Below, one piece after another: positions 1,477-10,519 of a stretch of 10,702 nucleotides of DNA (the stretch's first letter is position 1; every line of letters starts with the position of its first letter). Made by a program: the position numbers and the translations under genes. Source of the DNA: a virus (lineage: Duplodnaviria; Heunggongvirae; Uroviricota; Caudoviricetes). The DNA is taken from IMG/VR virus record IMGVR_UViG_2693429676_000015. One strand, 5' to 3'. The notes beneath the pieces are model-generated. The model did no database searches. It was given only the letters and a program-made list of their open reading frames with translations, and was not told the origin of the DNA.

Positions 1477-1977
1477 TTAGGCGCGACGGCCTTTTTGTGC
1501 AGCTAACCACCGCGCAACCGTACGATCCATTGATTCTTTTTTATCTTTCATCTCCTGAAGCATGTGTTCTTGATCTTCTTTCGGAAAAGCTCTGAACGTA
1601 TGGATTAAATCTCGTTCCATCGGCTCTACGGCAAACGGTAGTTCATCCTCTGTTTGTTCTGTGTCTGCTGGTAATGCGACTATGTTATCTTGCTGTGGTT
1701 CTCGACAATACATCCTTGCAATTTGCAGCAAATCTACCATGTCTGGCCTGATTGACTCAGGGGGAACTTTCAGTAAGCCAGCAAACTTTAGAACAGCCTC
1801 AAGGTTTAGTGGGGTTTGACCATTTAGGTAGTGACTTACCGCCCCTTGTGTTGAAAACCCCATAATTTCCGCCGCACGTTCCTGAGTCAATCCCAACTGA
1901 GATTTCTTTGCCATCCAGATTTCTTTCAGTCTTCTGGCGGCGTTGAGGTCGGTGTCTGACAATGATTTTCTTTTCAT
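1477..1977 (-). CDS. paaR: CI-like/PaaR-like HTH (XRE-family) repressor, 166 aa from ATG at 1977 (the ORF track extends to a GTG at 2007)
   Basis: N-terminal HTH (LTQERAAEIMGFSTQGAVSHYLNGQTPLNLEAVLKFAGLLKV). Divergent from a Cro-like gene across an operator-bearing intergenic region. First gene of a three-gene operon with the antitoxin and toxin. No S24 peptidase motif is evident in the C-terminus. Confidence 0.75.
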   Translation of the reverse strand: MKRKSLSDTDLNAARRLKEIWMAKKSQLGLTQERAAEIMGFSTQGAVSHYLNGQTPLNLEAVLKFAGLLKVPPESIRPDMVDLLQIARMYCREPQQDNIVALPADTEQTEDELPFAVEPMERDLIHTFRAFPKEDQEHMLQEMKDKKESMDRTVARWLAAQKGRRA

Positions 1978-2088
1978 ACATCCAATTCTAATAAGATTGC
2001 TAATCACTTTGAAATAGCATCACTATTTACTTTTAAAAATAACAGTGCTATTAATTATGCATTGGTAACACATCACATAGGGCGGATT
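1978..2088. promoter_or_regulatory. OR-like divergent promoter/operator region between the repressor and the cro-like gene
   Basis: AT-rich 111-bp intergenic region with two copies of the OL motif: 2013-2027 AATAGCATCACTATT and 2038-2052 AATAACAGTGCTATT, 25 bp centre to centre. Confidence 0.55.
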
Positions 2089-2352
2089 ATGAATCTTGGA
2101 GAATATTTGCATCATTTTCATATAACCCAGAGTTCATTTGCTGAGATTGTTGGCGCATCCCAAGGGATGGTCAGCCACGTTATAACGGGGCGTGCAAAAC
2201 TTACAGGAGAAAAAATATTACGTTGGTGTGAAGCAACGGGATGGGTGGTGACCCCACATGAGATTGACAGTAAAACCTACCCCAACCCAACTGACGGCTT
2301 GCCTGCTGAGTTTCAGGCTAACACACAACCATCGGCGGGGGTTGATTCATGA
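2089..2352 (+). CDS. Cro/YdaS-like small HTH regulator (87 aa from ATG 2089; the ORF track starts at a TTG at 2062)
   Basis: HTH segment (QSSFAEIVGASQGMVSHVITGRAKLTGEKILRWCEATG). AGGG Shine-Dalgarno 7 nt upstream of the ATG. Divergent to the repressor. Its stop overlaps the next gene's start (ATGA at 2349-2352). Confidence 0.65.
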   Translation: MNLGEYLHHFHITQSSFAEIVGASQGMVSHVITGRAKLTGEKILRWCEATGWVVTPHEIDSKTYPNPTDGLPAEFQANTQPSAGVDS

Positions 2353-2774
2353 AAATCAAGCATGAACACATCCGCATGGCGATGAAAGCCTGGGCGCATC
2401 CGGACGGTGAAAAAGTTCCGGCAGCTGAAATAACCAGGGTTTATTTCGAACTGGGAATGACGTTTCCGGTTCTGCATAACGACAGCAAGCACAACACGCT
2501 TTATCTCAACACCCAAAAGATTTTCCGTTGGCTGGATAAAGACACCCCTGACGCTGTTGAAAAAATTCAGGCGTTGTTACCTGCGATCGAAAGGGCAATG
2601 CCACCTCCGCTGGTGGCTCGAATGCGCAGCCACAGTTCAGCTTATTTTCGGGAACTGGTGGAGACGCATGAACGACTGGTGAGAGACGCTGATGATTTTG
2701 TCGCAGTGGCAATCGCCGGTTTCAATCAGATGAACCGTGGTGGCCCGGCAGGAAATGCTGTGGCAGTACATTGA
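2349..2774 (+). CDS. YdaT-like protein (141 aa), possible CII-like regulator of the Rac-type immunity module
   Basis: Starts MKIKHEHI..., which I recall as the N-terminus of Rac-prophage YdaT; the length (about 140 aa) and position directly after the Cro/YdaS-like gene also match. Translationally coupled to the upstream gene. Confidence 0.6.
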   Translation: MKIKHEHIRMAMKAWAHPDGEKVPAAEITRVYFELGMTFPVLHNDSKHNTLYLNTQKIFRWLDKDTPDAVEKIQALLPAIERAMPPPLVARMRSHSSAYFRELVETHERLVRDADDFVAVAIAGFNQMNRGGPAGNAVAVH

Positions 2775-2845
2775 CTGACAATAGCCATATCGAATCGCTC
2801 CCGGCAACTCGTGAGTAAAAAGATTCGGTATCAGAAGAGGTGAGT

Positions 2846-3910
2846 ATGGCTAACGCCTGGCTCAGATTATGGCATGACATGCCAAATGACCCTAAGTGGC
2901 GAACAATTGCCAGGGTGTCAGGGCAGCCAATTGCAACAGTGATGGCAGTGTATATCCACCTCCTGGTGAGCGCGTCACGAAATGTCACGCGAGGTCACAT
3001 TGATGTCACGACAGAAGATTTGGCAAGTGCGCTCGACGTGACAGAAGAGGTAATTGATTCAATTTTGCAGACGATGCAGGGGCGGGTACTTGATGGTGAT
3101 TTAATCACTGGATGGGAAAAACGCCAGGTGCTTAAAGAGGACAACGGCAATATTTCGCAAACCGCAAAATCTCCTGCAGAGCGCAAGAGGGCGCAGCGAG
3201 AGAGGGAAAGAAAGCGGGAACAAAATGGCGATTGTCACGGCGCGTCACGAAATGTCACGCACATGTCACGACGAGTCACGACAGATACAGATAAAGATAC
3301 AGATAAAGAAGATCAAAACACTATGGTCCATGGCGTAAAAAACGCCACGAACCAGGCAGGGGATGTTCAGACCGTCAATCCTGGTCAGCCAGCAGGCTCG
3401 ACACCGGAAGCCGATTCAGCGTATGCGCTGAAAGCCGATTCGGGCGCTGTGCAGCAGGTGATGACCGCAAGGCCGGAGCAATCACTCCAACTGCAGCAGC
3501 CTGAAGCCGATTCCGCCATTCAGCGGGAAGCCGATCGGGTAGCCCCGGAAAACACCGGGCAGCCTGTGGGACGAGTGGATTATCCGGATGTGTTCGAACA
3601 GGTCTGGCGGGAATACCCGTTGCGTGCCGGGGCAAACCCGAAGAAATCCGCATTCAGTGCCTGGAAGGCCAGATTGCGCGAGGGGGTGCCACCAGAGACC
3701 ATGCTGGATGGTGTGAGGCGTTACGCGAGATACCTGGCGGCGACCGGGAAAGCGGGAACGGAATTTGTTCAGCGAGCGACGACGTTTTTTGGGCCGGACC
3801 GGAATTTTGAAAACCCCTGGTTGCTCCCGGTAAGCGGCACGAACAACCAGCGTTGTGTGAATCATATTTCTGAACCGGATACCGAAATTCCGCCGGGATT
3901 CAGGGGGTGA
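2846..3910 (+). CDS. Phage replication initiator (lambda O-like role; YdaU-like position), 354 aa from ATG 2846
   Basis: GAGGTG Shine-Dalgarno 4-5 nt before the ATG. Position is immediately upstream of the DnaC-like loader. The coding sequence contains origin-like iterons and an AT-rich tandem repeat. The C-terminal region (YPDVFEQVWREYPLRAGANPKKSAFSAWKARL) resembles motifs in phage replisome-organiser proteins. Not verified by search. Confidence 0.6.
   Translation: MANAWLRLWHDMPNDPKWRTIARVSGQPIATVMAVYIHLLVSASRNVTRGHIDVTTEDLASALDVTEEVIDSILQTMQGRVLDGDLITGWEKRQVLKEDNGNISQTAKSPAERKRAQRERERKREQNGDCHGASRNVTHMSRRVTTDTDKDTDKEDQNTMVHGVKNATNQAGDVQTVNPGQPAGSTPEADSAYALKADSGAVQQVMTARPEQSLQLQQPEADSAIQREADRVAPENTGQPVGRVDYPDVFEQVWREYPLRAGANPKKSAFSAWKARLREGVPPETMLDGVRRYARYLAATGKAGTEFVQRATTFFGPDRNFENPWLLPVSGTNNQRCVNHISEPDTEIPPGFRG
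2971..3318. repeat. Putative phage origin of replication: two clusters of GTCACG iterons at about 10-bp phasing plus an AT-rich tandem repeat, inside the initiator gene
   Basis: Cluster 1: GTCACG at 2973, 2983, 2993 (GTCACA) and 3004. Cluster 2: GTCACG at 3234, 3244, 3254, 3265 and 3275. The two roughly 45-bp blocks (gcgtcacgaaatgtcacgc...) are near-duplicates. An inverted copy (cgtgac) is at 3046-3051. Tandem gatacagataaa x2 at 3284-3307. Confidence 0.55.
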
Positions 3911-3916
3911 TGTGGC

Positions 3917-4663
3917 ATGAAAAACATTGCGGCAGCCGGGGTTCTTGAACGTATTCACAGACTTGCACCACAGGGGGCGGTTCCACCGTACCGGACGGTG
4001 GAGGAGTGGCGGGAATGGCAACTTGCTGAAGGACGAAAACGCAGCGAGGAGATTAACCGCCAGAATCGCCAGTTGCGGGTGGAAAAAATCCTGAATCGTT
4101 CGGGCATCCAGCCTCTGCACAGCAAATGCTCGTTTGCGAATTATCAGGTGCAGAACGACGGGCAAAAATACGCGCTGAGCCAGGCCAAATCCATAGCTGA
4201 CGAACTGATGACCGGGTGCACGAATTTTGTGTTCAGCGGTAAAACCGGCACCGGGAAAAATCACCTTGCAGCGGCGATGGGTAACCGGCTGATGGCGAAG
4301 GGGCGCAGCGTGATTATCGTCACCGAGTCTGATGTCATGAGCGTGTTGCATGACAGCTACGACAACGGCAAATCCGGTGAAAAATTTTTACAGGAGCTTT
4401 GCGGGGTTGATTTGCTGGTCCTGGATGAAATAGGCATTCAGCGGGAGACGAAAAACGAGCAGGTGGTATTGCACCAGATAATTGATCGCCGGACAGCATC
4501 ACTGTGCAGTGTCGGGATGTTAACAAACCTGAATCATGCCGCAATGAGCACGCTTCTTGGTGAGAGGATTATGGACCGCATGACCATGAACGGTTGTCGG
4601 TGGGTGACGTTTAACTGGGATAGCTGGCGTTCAAATGTCAGCTTTCCGGGAGTTGTGAAGTAA
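3917..4663 (+). CDS. DnaC-like replicative helicase loader (IstB-like AAA+ ATPase; Rac YdaV position), 248 aa
   Basis: Walker A FSGKTGTGKNHLAAAMG and Walker B LLVLDEIG; N-terminal region typical of DnaC-like loaders; directly follows the initiator gene. Confidence 0.85.
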   Translation: MKNIAAAGVLERIHRLAPQGAVPPYRTVEEWREWQLAEGRKRSEEINRQNRQLRVEKILNRSGIQPLHSKCSFANYQVQNDGQKYALSQAKSIADELMTGCTNFVFSGKTGTGKNHLAAAMGNRLMAKGRSVIIVTESDVMSVLHDSYDNGKSGEKFLQELCGVDLLVLDEIGIQRETKNEQVVLHQIIDRRTASLCSVGMLTNLNHAAMSTLLGERIMDRMTMNGCRWVTFNWDSWRSNVSFPGVVK

Positions 4664-5410: not shown

Positions 5411-5425
5411 TTGCCGGGGGCGCTT

Positions 5426-5636
5426 ATGGCAAAAGTATTTACACAGGAAGAGCGGGAAAAAATTAAGGGGCAGGTTGTTGAACTCGTACGCCAGAGTGGG
5501 CGCGAGACGTTACGACAACTGGAAGCTAAAACCGGGGCGACAAGATATTTAATAAGCGTTCTCGCCAGAGAGCTGGTTGCCAGTGGGGATGTATACAACT
5601 CTGGCTACGGGTTATTCCCGTCTGAACAGGCTCGTA
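5426..5636 (+). pseudogene. 5' portion of a phage gene (MAKVFTQEEREKIKGQVVELVRQSG...), interrupted at the N at 5637
   Basis: ATG at 5426 with a G-rich Shine-Dalgarno. Positions 5446-5636 are identical to 6577-6767 (copy 3). After the N at 5637 the sequence switches to the antisense of an IS3-family orfA. Confidence 0.4.
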
Positions 5637-5637
5637 N

Positions 5638-5993
5638 TTTTTCAGCGACTCCTGTGCAAAATACGCTGTTGCTTTTTTTAATATATCTCGCTCAAGGCGA
5701 GCTTCATTTAACGCCTTACGCAGTTGCAGAATTTCAGATTCCAGTTCAGCCACCGTGCGGGAACCAGGAGTACCGAGCCCTTTTCTGGCGGCGGTAACCC
5801 ATTGTCCTAAAGTGCCTTCAGGAAGAGATAATCGGGAAGCGCCTTCACTGATCGAAAGTTGATTTTCAGGAACCGTTCTGACAGCTTCGGCTTTGAACTC
5901 TTTAGAGTAACGTTGGGTTTTTCTGCTCATTATTAGCTCCTTCTGATGCCATTCTATTTCAGGAAGGAGTGTCCGTTAAACTCAGGCTACCTC
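5638..5993 (-). mobile_element. IS3-family insertion sequence fragment (left end plus N-terminal part of orfA; IS600-like from memory)
   Basis: Minus-strand ORF MSRKTQRYSKEFKAEAVRTVPENQLSISEGASRLSLPEGTLGQWVTAARKGLG...LERDILKKATAYFAQESLK is a typical IS3-family OrfA (HTH plus leucine zipper). The element end reads TGAGGTAGCC... on the minus strand near 5993. It is truncated at the N at 5637. Confidence 0.7.
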
Positions 5994-6384
5994 AAAAATT
6001 AAAGGGCAGGTTGTTGAACTTGTACGTCTGAGCGGTCGCGAGACGTTGCGGCAACTGGAAGCCAAGACAGGTGCGACAAGATATCTGATGAGTGTTCTCG
6101 CCAGAGAGCTGGTTGCCAGTGGCGATGTATACAACTCTGGTTACGGGTTATTCCCGTCTGAACAGGCGCGTAAGGACTGGCAAAACGCCCGCAAAAAACT
6201 CTCAAGGGCAAATCTGAAGAAACCATCTGTGGTTGATCCTGACCTTATCTGGTCATTACCAGACGGAGAAATACGCCGCTACGACAGGCGTCAAAACATA
6301 ATCTGTAGCGAGTGCCGGAAGAGCGAAGCTATGCAGCGTGTACTGGCTTTCTATCAGGGTAATTTTCAGAAGGTGCTGTTGTGA
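5994..6384 (+). pseudogene. 5'-truncated divergent paralogue of the same phage gene (copy 2), preceded by the IS3-family end
   Basis: Aligns to copy 1 and copy 3 from ...KIKGQVVEL to the stop, with scattered nucleotide differences (roughly 5-8% by eye) and a few amino-acid changes. No start codon, because the IS end abuts it. Confidence 0.5.
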
Positions 6385-6456: not shown

Positions 6457-6571
6457 GGTGATGCTGCCAACTTACTGATTTAGTGTATGATGGTGTTTTT
6501 GAGGTGCTCCAGTGGCTTCTGTTTCTATCAGCTGTCCCTCCTGTTCAGCTACTGACGGGGTGGTGCGTAAC
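6457..6571 (+). mobile_element. insA: IS1 left-end fragment (inverted repeat plus the first 20 codons of insA), truncated by the N run
   Basis: ggtgatgctgccaacttactgatttagtgtatgatgg... and the encoded MASVSISCPSCSATDGVVRN match the IS1 left end and InsA N-terminus as I recall them. The sequence stops at NNNNN (6572-6576). Confidence 0.8.
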
Positions 6572-6576
6572 NNNNN
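6572..6576. other. Run of 5 N (assembly gap or scaffold join); a single N also occurs at 5637
   Basis: Literal n characters in the sequence. Confidence 0.95.
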
Positions 6577-6979
6577 GGAAGAGCGGGAAAAAATTAAGGG
6601 GCAGGTTGTTGAACTCGTACGCCAGAGTGGGCGCGAGACGTTACGACAACTGGAAGCTAAAACCGGGGCGACAAGATATTTAATAAGCGTTCTCGCCAGA
6701 GAGCTGGTTGCCAGTGGGGATGTATACAACTCTGGCTACGGGTTATTCCCGTCTGAACAGGCTCGTAAGGACTGGCAAAACGCCCGCAAAAAACTCTCGA
6801 GGGCAAAGCTGAAGAAACCATCTGTGGTTGATCCGGACCTTATCTGGTCATTACCAGACGGAGAAATACGCCGCTACGACAGACATCAGAACATAATCTG
6901 TCGCGAGTGCCGGAAGAGTGAAGTTATGCAGCGTGTACCGGCTTTCTATCAGGGTGATTTTCAGGAGGCGGTACTGTGA
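6577..6979 (+). CDS. 3' portion (copy 3) of the phage gene seen at 5426; with copy 1 it would encode a protein of about 140 aa with a winged-helix-like segment and a CxxC motif
   Basis: Positions 6577-6767 are identical to 5446-5636. Reading frame is open to the TGA at 6977-6979. The ORF-track product 6512..6979 is a chimera with the InsA N-terminus across the N run. Confidence 0.5.
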
Positions 6980-7607: not shown

Positions 7608-9440
7608 ATGGCCCGCATGTTTGATACATTAGGATTTTACATTATGAATGTGCAACATTTTGATTTTTTTACAGATAATGAGTTTTCTAATCTGGAAAGA
7701 TATCAAACTTGTAAAGCCATGGCCAAAGGTTATGCGGGCAATTACAAAACCGGGCAGTCAAGGTTGATGCATGCCCGCTCATACTGCTTCAGCATCGTAG
7801 CTGCATATTGGGATACCCTTGCAAAAAAGCAAAAAAGCAGCATTAAAATGAGGGCAGTACCGCACACTGTTTACATAGAAGACATTCCATGTGATGCACG
7901 CGAGCTCGCTGAACGAACAGGTGAGCTTATTGCTCAATTTCCGGCGGAGGACGCTGGATATCTGATTGGGTCAATTTATACGGTAATGCTGCCATCCGCT
8001 TACCGTTCGGAATTGGGGGCTTACTATACCCCCCCACCTTTGGTAGCGCGTCTCTTGGACCTGGCTGAAAAGTCTGGTGTTGATTTTTCTCATGCATCGG
8101 TTATTGATCCTGCGTGTGGTGGCGGTGCATTTTTGGCACCAGTAGCCATTCGAATGTTAAAAAAAGACAAGGGGTCTTCCCCTGAATGGATGTTGAGGAG
8201 AATCAGTCGTCGTTTAAAGGGGATAGAAATCGATCCATTTGCGGCTTGGATGAGTTTGGTATTGCTCGAATCTGTACTAATGCCACTATGTGTAAAGGTA
8301 AAACGTAGATTGCCTGAAGATACAATTATTGTTGCTGATGCGCTTCAGCAAGATAAATTTTCTGGTTATGATCTTGTGGTAGGGAATCCGCCTTACGGAC
8401 GTGTCACTCTCGATATTAAAACGAGAGAAAAATATTCTCGTTCGTTATTTGGTCATGCAAATCTATATGGATTGTTCACCGACTTAGCTGTTCGCATGGT
8501 TAAAGAGAAAACAGGAGTTATTGCATTTCTTACGCCAACTTCTTTTCTTGGTGGGCAGTATTTCACCGCGCTGCGAACCCTTTTGACCGAAAAAACTACT
8601 CCGTATGCCCTTGATTTCGTCACTGACAGGGATGGGGTCTTTGACGATGTTCTCCAGGAAACAATGTTGACAGCATTCAAGGCGGGAGAACATAAAGTTC
8701 GGGCCCAGGTATCCTCACTTGTCCCTAAGGGGTTGAACAAAGCAAAAATTGAGAAAATAGGTAATGTTGATATAGAAAAAGGTGGAGCAACGTGGCTTTT
8801 GCCACGCGTTAAAGATGATGCCTGTTTTCTTAATGTATTAAAACAGATGTCTACGCGTTTAGCTGATCTGGGATACTCAGTCTCTACAGGTCAGTTAGTC
8901 TGGAATCGATTTAAGTCGCAGTTGCGTACGACGAAAGGAAAAAATAGCTACCCATTAGTCTGGGCGGAATCAATAACTTCAGCTGGTTTTCGTTTTAGTG
9001 CAGACAGAAAAAATCATGTTCCCTATATCGATATAACCCCACAACAGGGTTTCCTTGTGACAAAATCTGAATGTGTGCTTGTTCAGCGGACAACATCGAA
9101 GGAACAGGACAGAAGGATTTTAGCGGCAATTTTACCTCAGGGATTTATAGATGAAACTGGTGGCGTAGTAGTTGAAAACCATATTAATATTGTATATTCA
9201 AACGGATTGTTCTCTGCGGTTCGCCCTGATGTTATTGATATGCTACTTAATTCGCATGTTGTCGATCGGGCGTTCAGGTGTATAAGCGGAAGTGTTGCTG
9301 TTTCGGCCTATGAATTGAATTCAATCCCGTTGCCTTCTCTGGAGCAGGTGATGGAGATTCAATCGTTAATTGATGCTGGCGTCCACAGACGGATTATTGA
9401 GAGAACTATCGCTGGTTTCTATGGAGTGATGATTGCATGA
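7608..9440 (+). CDS. N6-adenine DNA methyltransferase, gamma-class (Eco57I/TaqI-like motif order), 610 aa; start could instead be the ATG at 7643
   Basis: Motif X GAYYTPPPLV (aa 137-146, nt about 8016-8045), motif I IDPACGGGAFL (aa 166-176), motif IV VVGNPPYG (aa 257-264, NPPY at nt 8386-8397), then about 340 aa of C-terminal, presumably target-recognition, sequence. Confidence 0.85.
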   Translation: MARMFDTLGFYIMNVQHFDFFTDNEFSNLERYQTCKAMAKGYAGNYKTGQSRLMHARSYCFSIVAAYWDTLAKKQKSSIKMRAVPHTVYIEDIPCDARELAERTGELIAQFPAEDAGYLIGSIYTVMLPSAYRSELGAYYTPPPLVARLLDLAEKSGVDFSHASVIDPACGGGAFLAPVAIRMLKKDKGSSPEWMLRRISRRLKGIEIDPFAAWMSLVLLESVLMPLCVKVKRRLPEDTIIVADALQQDKFSGYDLVVGNPPYGRVTLDIKTREKYSRSLFGHANLYGLFTDLAVRMVKEKTGVIAFLTPTSFLGGQYFTALRTLLTEKTTPYALDFVTDRDGVFDDVLQETMLTAFKAGEHKVRAQVSSLVPKGLNKAKIEKIGNVDIEKGGATWLLPRVKDDACFLNVLKQMSTRLADLGYSVSTGQLVWNRFKSQLRTTKGKNSYPLVWAESITSAGFRFSADRKNHVPYIDITPQQGFLVTKSECVLVQRTTSKEQDRRILAAILPQGFIDETGGVVVENHINIVYSNGLFSAVRPDVIDMLLNSHVVDRAFRCISGSVAVSAYELNSIPLPSLEQVMEIQSLIDAGVHRRIIERTIAGFYGVMIA

Positions 9441-10519
9441 ATCTGCCTGTTGTTCCCCCATTGAATGTTATCCGGGAAAGATTACAATTAATTTTCCCTG
9501 AAGGGACTGAGAATCGTGGATATTTAATTCGGGAAATAGCTGCAAAAACAATTTTTGTCATGTTTTATGCTGGTGCGGTTGAGGGGCTGGGGCGATGGAT
9601 AAGGCCCAGCCAGGTTGTAAGTATGGGAGATTCGCAGGCTGCTCTTACTGATGATGCGTCCAGAGAAAGCTGGGTAAAGATGACTTTCTCTAAACAAAAG
9701 ATAAGGCCTGCTGATGCATGGTATGCGGAAAATACGCGTGAGCCAATACGTGATGAAACTATAAAAAATGGCCTAATACCTTGCAATGCAATTGTTGAGC
9801 GTAAAGGTATACCCACCACATCCTCTCGTCCTCGTTACAGTTTGAATCGCTCTTTTGCAGCACTCTTTGATGCCGGGCTTGAAGGAGATTCGCTGCTGAG
9901 TGCAATAAGTTCCTGGCAAGAAAATCATTTGAACAAAGCCGCTCTTGCTAGGTTGCGTTTATTGAAATCAGGGGCAGTGATTGCTGCTGATGCCGTAGTC
10001 GTCACTTTCCCAAATGGAGAGAAGAGAACTTTAGCTCCGGGCCCGTCAAGTACAATAGCTAAGGCCGTCATCGAAGTTTTTGCTCCTAATTTTCTTAAGA
10101 ATCCAACTGTGCTCTGGTTGTCTGAATCCGGGAATAAAGTTGTTGCTCAGGATGATGTATTGGCAAAAGCATTGGGGCTGAATATTGATGCCTCAAAAGC
10201 ACTTCCAGATATTATTTTGATTGATTTGGGAGAGGACCGAACGGGTTCGGACATGCTTGTAGTTTTCACTGAAGTAGTTGCGACAGATGGGCCTATAAAC
10301 AGGGAACGAAAAGTTACTCTCACTCATTTGGCTATTGACGCTGGGTTCAGCGAGAAAAATCTTGCATTCCTTACGGCATTTATGGACAGAAGTGCTCTGC
10401 CTTTTAAAAAGGCAATACCAGAATTGGCGTGGGGATCTTATGCATGGTTTGCTTCTGAACCGGAGCACTTAATTGATCTTCGGGATGGTTATCCGGTAAA
10501 GATCAGCCAGAGAAAATGA
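9437..10519 (+). CDS. Putative restriction endonuclease partner of the methyltransferase (360 aa); BsuBI/PstI-like family is a tentative guess
   Basis: Start ATG overlaps the methyltransferase stop (ATGA at 9437-9440), indicating translational coupling. No methyltransferase motifs. Size and context fit a Type II REase. The N-terminal segment (VIRERLQLIFPEGTENRGYLIREIAAKTIFVMFYAGA) resembles what I recall of BsuBI/PstI-family N-termini. There is a possible acidic cluster at LIDLGED...FTEVV. Not verified. Confidence 0.5.
   Translation: MNLPVVPPLNVIRERLQLIFPEGTENRGYLIREIAAKTIFVMFYAGAVEGLGRWIRPSQVVSMGDSQAALTDDASRESWVKMTFSKQKIRPADAWYAENTREPIRDETIKNGLIPCNAIVERKGIPTTSSRPRYSLNRSFAALFDAGLEGDSLLSAISSWQENHLNKAALARLRLLKSGAVIAADAVVVTFPNGEKRTLAPGPSSTIAKAVIEVFAPNFLKNPTVLWLSESGNKVVAQDDVLAKALGLNIDASKALPDIILIDLGEDRTGSDMLVVFTEVVATDGPINRERKVTLTHLAIDAGFSEKNLAFLTAFMDRSALPFKKAIPELAWGSYAWFASEPEHLIDLRDGYPVKISQRK

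Follow-up and report, generated by a model that had tools for sequence, protein, structure and literature searches.

The DNA analysed here is a 10,702-nt stretch (the window; IMG/VR record IMGVR_UViG_2693429676_000015, from a virus of the Caudoviricetes). Within its 354-residue replication initiator gene (2846–3910, + strand; named ‘phage replisome organizer’ in RefSeq) are two arrays of the hexamer GTCACG, the second of which is followed by an A+T-rich tract and a short palindrome. We consider it likely, from comparison with related genes, that the interval 2974–3354 serves a lambdoid prophage as its origin of vegetative replication and that this origin lies within the gene for its own initiator. 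The comparative evidence supports a candidate arrangement of initiator-binding iterons and an unwinding tract, both inside the initiator gene. A preliminary description of the window had already proposed an origin at this place, and that interpretation is now supported by DNA-level selection on the repeats, their linkage to the N-terminal domain of the initiator, a concerted change of iteron word between subfamilies, and a constant layout.

The upstream array (cluster 1; 2974–3010, + strand) consists of exact GTCACG copies at 2974–2979, 2984–2989 and 3005–3010 and a GTCACA at 2994–2999, with spacings of 10, 10 and 11 bp. Four GTCACG copies had been described at 2973–3009; the array is real, although it lies one base further along than stated and the hexamer at 2994 is the GTCACA variant. 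The linker array (cluster 2; 3234–3280, + strand) contains GTCACG at 3234–3239, 3244–3249, 3254–3259, 3265–3270 and 3275–3280, with spacings of 10, 10, 11 and 10 bp, and here the earlier account of five copies every 10–11 bp was correct in every copy. Each array therefore holds at least three helically phased direct repeats of one word (four and five copies, respectively). One inverted copy, on the − strand at 3037–3042 and absent from the earlier account, brings the number of exact GTCACG hexamers in the 10.7-kb window to nine, all of them inside 2974–3280. Clustering of this kind lies beyond all shuffles: eight + strand copies fall within 310 nt, compared with a maximum of four in 2000 dinucleotide-preserving shuffles of the window, and five spacings between adjacent copies are of 10 or 11 bp, compared with a maximum of two over all hexamers in 300 shuffles. 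The arrays have an identical run of 21 nt in common (2970–2990 and 3240–3260). The near-duplicate blocks of about 45 bp reported previously are real to that extent, although the figure was generous, as a 39-nt register is just 64–72% alike. The repeated SRNVT peptide that had been pointed out is present as ASRNVT at residues 43–48 and 133–138 of the initiator.

Adjoining the linker array is an A+T-rich (GATAMA)n tract (3281–3318, + strand), with purines on the top strand, whose hexanucleotide repeat begins 3 nt past the last hexamer. It includes two copies of GATACAGATAAA, detected as a tandem repeat at 3283–3309 (period 12, 2.2 copies, 100% match) that also has a 6-bp unit, ACAGAT/GATAMA; a 12-bp A+T-rich tandem repeat following the second array had indeed been noted. 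The G+C content of 0.30 at 3280–3319 is the minimum of the scanned region 2700–4000, which contains the whole gene, and the top strand has a strong skew of A over T. We propose that cluster 2 is the core initiator-binding array of the origin and that the tract is its DNA unwinding element.

It could be argued that the repeats matter as protein, an SRNVT-type peptide motif having some structural or interaction role and the DNA periodicity being a by-product. Both the double occurrence of ASRNVT and the invariance of repeat-region residues in protein alignments (S44, N46, V47, T48, R49, G50, H51, H131, S134, R135 and V137, with T138 nearly so) would fit such a role. However, the spacing of 10–11 bp is not a multiple of three, and the hexamer therefore falls in all three reading frames, where it is read as different peptides: SR (G-TCA-CG), VT (GTC-ACG), and GH or CH (xGT-CAC-G). 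Furthermore, synonymous positions are frozen only inside the hexamers. For a comparison of codon choice we used 22 relatives belonging to different genera, whose first 300 nt have an average nucleotide identity of 69% between pairs. Eight conserved codons have their third base in a cluster-1 hexamer, and the mean codon-choice entropy at these was 0.13 bit, as opposed to 1.46 bit at 47 other equally conserved codons (Mann–Whitney p = 8.5e-6). Within cluster 1, GTC was used in 22/22 relatives, ACG in 22/22 and 21/22, GGT in 22/22, CAC in 21/21, TCA in 21/22 and GCG in 20/22. The inverted copy codes for part of D64-V65-T66; the codon for V65 is GTG in all 18 relatives having valine there, and many relatives of the GTCAC type have GTGAC at gene nt 193 (192 if the word is taken as CGTGA). 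In cluster 2, the invariant residues fall within a linker whose other residues could not be aligned and which is disordered in the model, so that their conservation looks like a DNA constraint read through the code. Reading in three frames and the frozen synonymous sites thus show, as far as sequence comparison goes, that the repeats are selected as DNA, not as peptide. On the same two grounds the peptide-repeat explanation is largely refuted and was rejected, and we give it almost no credence.

The second line of evidence for an origin is the company that the repeats keep. The family has 727 protein matches, and we examined 52 genome loci, relatives having been fetched with a degenerate pattern encoding the cluster-1 peptide and with the independent pattern MPNDPKW. 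Close copies are common: the initiator is found at 96–97.5% nucleotide identity in seven sequenced phages, including Tritos and Evi, and the pair of initiator and helicase loader genes in 159 complete Escherichia coli genomes. More informative are genes that share only part of the protein. In Pseudomonas phage phita81A (L001), residues 1–138 alone are in common (69.5% identity); the C-terminus is different and the next gene is a primase/helicase gene (L001 3397–5226). Here GTCACG occurs at gene nt 129, 139, 149 and 160, in inverted form at 192, and another four times at 388–418, where TAGATAAAGATACAGAAGAAG follows; the offset between the arrays is 259 bp, compared with 260 bp in the window. 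Conversely, E. coli phage PhiR5_2 has only the C-terminal module in common (residues 156–354, 65%), and it has no GTCACG array. In Tritos (L003/L136, 33216–33638) the same initiator has no adjoining loader gene, the next gene being Ren-like.

Twenty-five genes are of the GTCAC type, namely those of the window, of phita81A and of 23 genome loci; their hosts are Enterobacteria, Pseudomonas, Bordetella, Chromobacterium, Stenotrophomonas and others, and Serratia and metagenome-assembled genomes (MAGs) of Acidobacteria are also among the array carriers. The layout of the 25 is uniform, with four copies at fixed positions in the domain-coding part (nt 129/139/149/160) and, in the linker, three to six copies, a nearly constant 3-nt junction and then (GATAAA)n. 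In all 25 an A+T-rich element lies directly beside the array: the A+T content of the 40 nt past the last hexamer is 0.50–0.82 (at least 0.60 in 24/25), as against 0.33–0.59 for the gene. The comparison shows that the repeats accompany the predicted N-terminal winged-helix domain across genera, whatever the C-terminal domain or partner gene.

This distribution bears on a further explanation, in which the hexamers are sites for another protein (a host factor, repressor, Cro, cII or terminase) or neutral products of slippage or gene conversion. The hexanucleotide tract clearly slips, and the 21-nt identity between the arrays is suggestive of conversion. However, the arrays follow the N-terminal domain from Enterobacteria to the Acidobacteria MAGs in the presence of different partner genes, and GTCACG is absent from the cI–cro intergenic region and the rest of the window. 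Sites for an operator-binding or other regulator were rejected, as there are no copies outside the initiator gene, and neutral slippage was rejected since the hexamers are conserved at synonymous sites where overall nucleotide identity is 69%. We consider explanations of this type very unlikely.

Variation among close copies follows the same division. Among 81 comparable, near-identical E. coli/Shigella copies, the cluster-2 GTCAC cores never vary. Variation is seen in the spacers (ggcgc to ggcga, ggtgc or gacgc; cacat to catat; gacga to gacaa or ggcaa) and in the number of (GATAMA)n units, which is polymorphic among close prophages (L056–L135, L003, L004) and gives proteins of 354, 356, 360 and 364 residues; two singletons have a mutated cluster-1 hexamer. 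The suggestion that the iteron segment might be hypervariable in homologues thus proved wrong for the hexamers, which are its most conserved part, and it is the spacers, copy number and tract length that vary. A 21-nt insertion in cluster 1 (peptide SRNVTTCHGVSLRGH) was seen in Escherichia albertii (L005, gene nt 129–181) and in a protein from E. coli O157 (P0017). It adds two GTCAC, giving six in total, and so the upstream array can expand inside the domain-coding region.

The third line of evidence comes from relatives in which the word itself is different. Loci fetched through MPNDPKW carry either GTAACG or TGTAACGC (L024, L027, L033, L037, L043, L044) or CGAACGC (L032, L035, L036, L038, L040–L042, L047, L049), each with the same word at both arrays. 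A single word is present three or more times in the linker array of 41 out of 49 genes (those of the window, of phita81A and of 47 genome loci), so that the repeat structure which the preliminary description had made a check on its proposal is indeed present in most of these homologous initiator genes. The linker word recurs in the upstream array in 39 of the 41; by type, the linker words are GTCAC (25), GTAAC (6), GAACG (9, of which 8 recur upstream) and AACGCC (1, with no upstream array). No locus with discordant array types was seen among the 49 genes. The alignments thus show both arrays switching word in concert between subfamilies, and the repeats are DNA-constrained and co-inherited, or co-varying, with the putative DNA-binding domain of the initiator.

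Several points weigh against the origin interpretation or restrict its scope. Because the pattern encoding cluster 1 was degenerate, it biases the peptide and not the codons: the presence of the cluster-1 peptide is partly ascertained through the fetch, whilst the synonymous codons are not. The upstream array is not universal, since L039 (seven copies) and L054 (five copies) have a linker array only; for this reason we take the linker array and tract to be the constant core and the upstream array to be dispensable. L031, L034 and L045 keep just one or two degenerate copies plus the tract, and L048 and L050 have neither array nor tract. GTCACG, GTAACG and CGAACG share their ACG half and differ at up to three positions, and so the specificity switches are small and few; they are also nested in the phylogeny. 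Part of the concerted pattern could come from gene conversion between the arrays, an idea that the 21-nt identity in the window fits. Outside residues 45–55, similarity of the N-terminal domain is hardly higher within iteron types (0.72) than between them (0.65). The residues separating GTCAC from GAACG types are 45–55, which is trivial as these are encoded by the iterons, and 100–109; on these alignments, having residues 100–109 as the sole non-iteron discriminator does not settle where specificity lies. Finally, literature searches (GTCACG iterons, replisome-organiser iterons, non-lambdoid Stx replication regions) returned no paper on the origin of this family.

In two further loci, from a Serratia MAG (L046) and Pantoea (L053), the linker is replaced by an inserted segment (YVYYV...GISRNPWAR; gene nt ~320–700) that opens with four to six copies of ACTACG(TA) and is not followed by a GATAAA tract. 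This segment may resemble a small nuclease-like domain.

The predicted structure of the initiator offers a means by which it might recognise the repeats. An AlphaFold2 model of residues 1–160, built from 33 sequences, had a mean predicted local distance difference test score (pLDDT) of 71.7, with block means of 85–95 over most of residues 11–90 and a dip to 72 at residues 41–50. The modelled elements are three helices, a loop (46–55), helices 56–63 and 67–77, a beta wing (78–86) and a basic helix (110–126), with disorder from residue 127. The helix–turn–helix (HTH) and beta wing are confidently modelled and match solved winged helices, and in the model the N-terminal domain folds as a winged helix similar to those of DnaD-like proteins or regulators. 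The initiator can accordingly be divided into the winged helix (residues ~1–97), the basic helix (110–126), a disordered linker (127–~230) and a C-terminal module which, by homology, starts at about residue 156. Given this layout, cluster 1 codes for the last part of helix 3 together with the loop that precedes the HTH (residues 43–55), and cluster 2 and the tract code for disordered linker.

Profile searches placed the whole protein in phrog_3729, ‘replication initiation protein’ (E = 3e-250), over its full length (protein 1–354, profile 1–356). A Pfam scan gave no significant family and no match to DnaT or DnaD, and the lambda O family (Phage_rep_O, PF04492) did not match the N-terminal domain up to an E value of 10. 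PF09681 (Phage_rep_org_N) remained below its cut-off (12.8 versus 23.3 bits, E = 0.12), though profile positions 1–118 of 121 were covered, as did TIGR01714 (15.4 versus 49.8 bits, E = 0.015). These scores suggest that the domain is at most a distant relative of the SPP1 G38P-type organiser domain.

In the mechanism that we propose, on the model of SPP1 and lambda, the N-terminal winged-helix domain would bind the direct GTCACG repeats which, being about one helical turn apart, all lie on one face of the DNA. The five-copy array at 3234–3280 would nucleate an oligomeric nucleoprotein complex, and this complex would destabilise the adjoining A+T-rich, strand-asymmetric (GATAMA)n tract at 3281–3318. 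The C-terminal module, together with the neighbouring DnaC-type loader (its presumed partner), would then place host DnaB on the opened DNA. The upstream array at 2974–3010 would supply auxiliary binding sites 260 bp away, strengthening or regulating the complex by looping, by titration or by blocking transcription of the initiator's own gene. Initiator binding, tract melting, helicase loading and what the upstream array does are all points that we infer from the analysis. That the upstream array is auxiliary is probable from the comparisons, because some relatives are without it.

A different possibility is that the arrays are indeed initiator-binding sites but act mainly in control, through autorepression, as a roadblock, or by titration or handcuffing, with the real origin elsewhere. 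Iteron plasmids are known to carry control iterons apart from the origin, as in the inc iterons of P1, F and R6K. Cluster 1 has some of the expected features, being early in the gene, without an A+T-rich neighbour and dispensable in some relatives, and two arrays 260 bp apart would suit looping. Cluster 2, by contrast, is always joined in fixed register to the A+T-rich tract, which is the signature of an origin. In addition, there is no other GTCACG cluster in the rest of the window or in the 46-kb Tritos genome (annotated as a complete lambdoid phage), where the only clusters are the two arrays. Nor did the window show enrichment for DnaA boxes: 36 matches with at most two mismatches were found, against 31.8 expected, none of them notable at the repeats. 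A purely regulatory role for both arrays thus seems unlikely, and we retain the origin interpretation; cluster 1 alone may well have a control role, which is compatible with it.

A stronger form of the origin interpretation is that the origin is truly bipartite and self-referential, the second array being written into the codons (the loop of residues 43–55) of the very domain that reads it. We think this possible but rather doubtful. Were it correct, a change of iteron word would necessarily rewrite part of the DNA-binding domain, and the switches among GTCACG, GTAACG and CGAACGC would be repeated instances of this, concerted between the two arrays. The core origin would then have a functional partner in the upstream array, via a 260-bp loop or through control of copy number or expression, and the hexanucleotide tract, fixed in register with the last iteron, would be recognised specifically as single-stranded DNA, like DnaA-trios, beyond being easy to melt.

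PhiR5_2 (L002) provides a separate observation on array number. Its N-terminal part has no detectable similarity to that of the window, yet it has two arrays of its own: AAGGGGCTT occurs as two direct copies with 11-bp spacing in the domain-coding part (gene nt 185–204; L002 2187–2206) and as two inverted copies in the linker (gene nt 440–459; L002 2442–2461). The inverted pair is followed by a purine tract, (CAGGAA)n, in place of (GATAMA)n, and then by the same palindrome as in the window. A two-array plan may therefore be general for these modules, and the PhiR5_2 layout hints at the bipartite plan as a general design.

The palindrome itself, TGGTCCATGGCGT-AAAAA-ACGCCACGAACCA (3324–3354), is imperfect. 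It follows closely on the A+T-rich tract and falls where the N-terminal module meets the C-terminal one. It is kept in PhiR5_2 exactly where homology to the PhiR5_2 C-terminal module starts, and it was the sole relevant match in a promoter and terminator scan of 1900–4000, which gave no enrichment. Short inverted repeats are mildly enriched 25–60 nt past the last iteron in 25 relatives (best stem 6.7 versus 5.8 matches, p = 7e-4). The palindrome may be part of the origin, and would complete a lambda-like order of iterons, A+T tract and palindrome, for which the evidence is weak. An Rfam scan of the window found no RNA family.

How does this arrangement compare with known systems? In phage lambda the origin lies inside gene O (PMC6022878). 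The likeness to the proposed origin of the window extends to its placing in the initiator gene of the early rightward operon, to a repeat array in the stretch that encodes the linker from the DNA-binding to the loader-recruiting domain, to an A+T-rich, strand-asymmetric region and then a short palindrome past the array, and to modular exchange, in which the N-terminal part moves together with its iterons and the C-terminal part together with its partner gene. An origin within the initiator gene is textbook knowledge, and is found also in phi80, 82, P22 (gene 18) and 933W. The iterons of the lambda origin are inverted-repeat sites of ~18–19 bp bound by O dimers, and the partner of O is P. In contrast, the window protein has no sequence relationship to O, its iterons are direct repeats with 6-bp cores every 10–11 bp, there is a second array 260 bp upstream in codons of the DNA-binding domain, and the partner is a DnaC-type AAA+ loader and not P. 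The resemblance to lambda that had been put forward therefore stands as an analogy of layout and not as family membership, since there is no Phage_rep_O match and the iterons are of a different type.

Phage SPP1 is a second point of reference. Its oriL lies inside gene 38 and combines G38P-binding repeats with an adjacent A+T-rich unwinding element, a 356-bp fragment being sufficient in vitro (PMC5737612). SPP1 and the window share the annotation name of the protein class, an origin (a proposed one in the window) in the organiser's own gene made of repeats plus an A+T-rich element, and an initiator without an AAA+ domain; there is also the weak N-terminal match to Phage_rep_org_N over its full length. 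They differ in that the matches to PF09681 and TIGR01714 are below threshold, in that SPP1 has its own helicase and loader and Gram-positive hosts, and in that SPP1 has a second G38P-binding region, oriR, at another place in its genome. As Tritos contains just two GTCACG clusters, its genome has no second, distant iteron site of the oriR kind. With the iteron plasmids (pPS10 RepA, R6K pi, RK2 TrfA, P1 RepA) the common features are a winged-helix initiator, helically phased direct repeats, an adjacent A+T-rich unwinding element and extra sets of iterons able to act in control. The window protein resembles DnaD and DnaT in fold or tail only; these are, to our knowledge, not sequence-specific origin binders.

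An iteron origin inside an initiator gene is thus of a known kind, and what we describe is a lambda-style arrangement in a protein family where it was not previously described; the Eru paper, for example, discusses neither origins nor this replication module. Less ordinary are a second array placed within the coding sequence for the DNA-binding domain, iteron words that change in concert, and a hexanucleotide tract kept in fixed register. The result provides a concrete candidate origin, open to testing, for a replication module that is frequent in prophages of E. coli and Shigella and whose N-terminal family spans Proteobacteria and beyond. Origin maps bear on the induction and copy number of lambdoid and Stx-type prophages, on replication-based exclusion and on phage-derived vectors. 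Natural variants of specificity (GTCACG, GTAACG, CGAACGC) occur on a domain that hardly changes, which also makes this a convenient system in which to ask how a 6-bp word is recognised by a small winged-helix initiator, and how a code evolves when protein and binding site overlap in it.

The surrounding genes, in the order cI-like, cro-like, cII/YdaT-like, initiator and DnaC-type loader, are those of the early rightward operon of a lambdoid prophage. The loader gene (3917–4663, + strand; YdaV-like) matches NCBIfam PRK12377 with 499 bits against a cut-off of 389, as well as Pfam IstB_IS21 (E = 3e-19) and Bac_DnaA, and phrog_50, which places it in the DnaC/IstB type. The repeats thus lie inside a replication-initiator gene (phrog_3729) that adjoins a helicase-loader gene (PRK12377).

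Some minor observations on the window may also be recorded. Within the initiator gene, AAGCCGATY occurs as four exact copies, the only ones in the window, at 3408, 3432, 3504 and 3528 (spacings 24, 72 and 24 bp). They are in frame and encode EADS/KADS/EADS/EADR; three related copies are present in PhiR5_2, of which one lies in another frame. The last 24 residues of the initiator (VNHISEPDTEIPPGFRG; residues 331–354, window 3836–3907) resemble the C-terminal end of DnaT (NCBIfam NF002770, E = 0.0016, far under the cut-off), and a PDB sequence search with the family profile found only this DnaT-like C-terminus (9zbt_D, 6aep_A; E ~0.004). The same tail also ends several otherwise different C-terminal modules of relatives and may be a shared docking or single-stranded DNA-binding element. 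Further downstream, tandem open reading frames (ORFs) at 5411–5797, 6046–6384 and 6512–6979 all match the Ren-like exclusion family phrog_142, some of them partially, which suggests duplication or decay. Two overlapping ORFs (7608–9440 and 9437–10519) match DNA methyltransferase and restriction endonuclease families (phrog_1600 and phrog_1639), and look like restriction-modification or defence cargo in the early region of the prophage.

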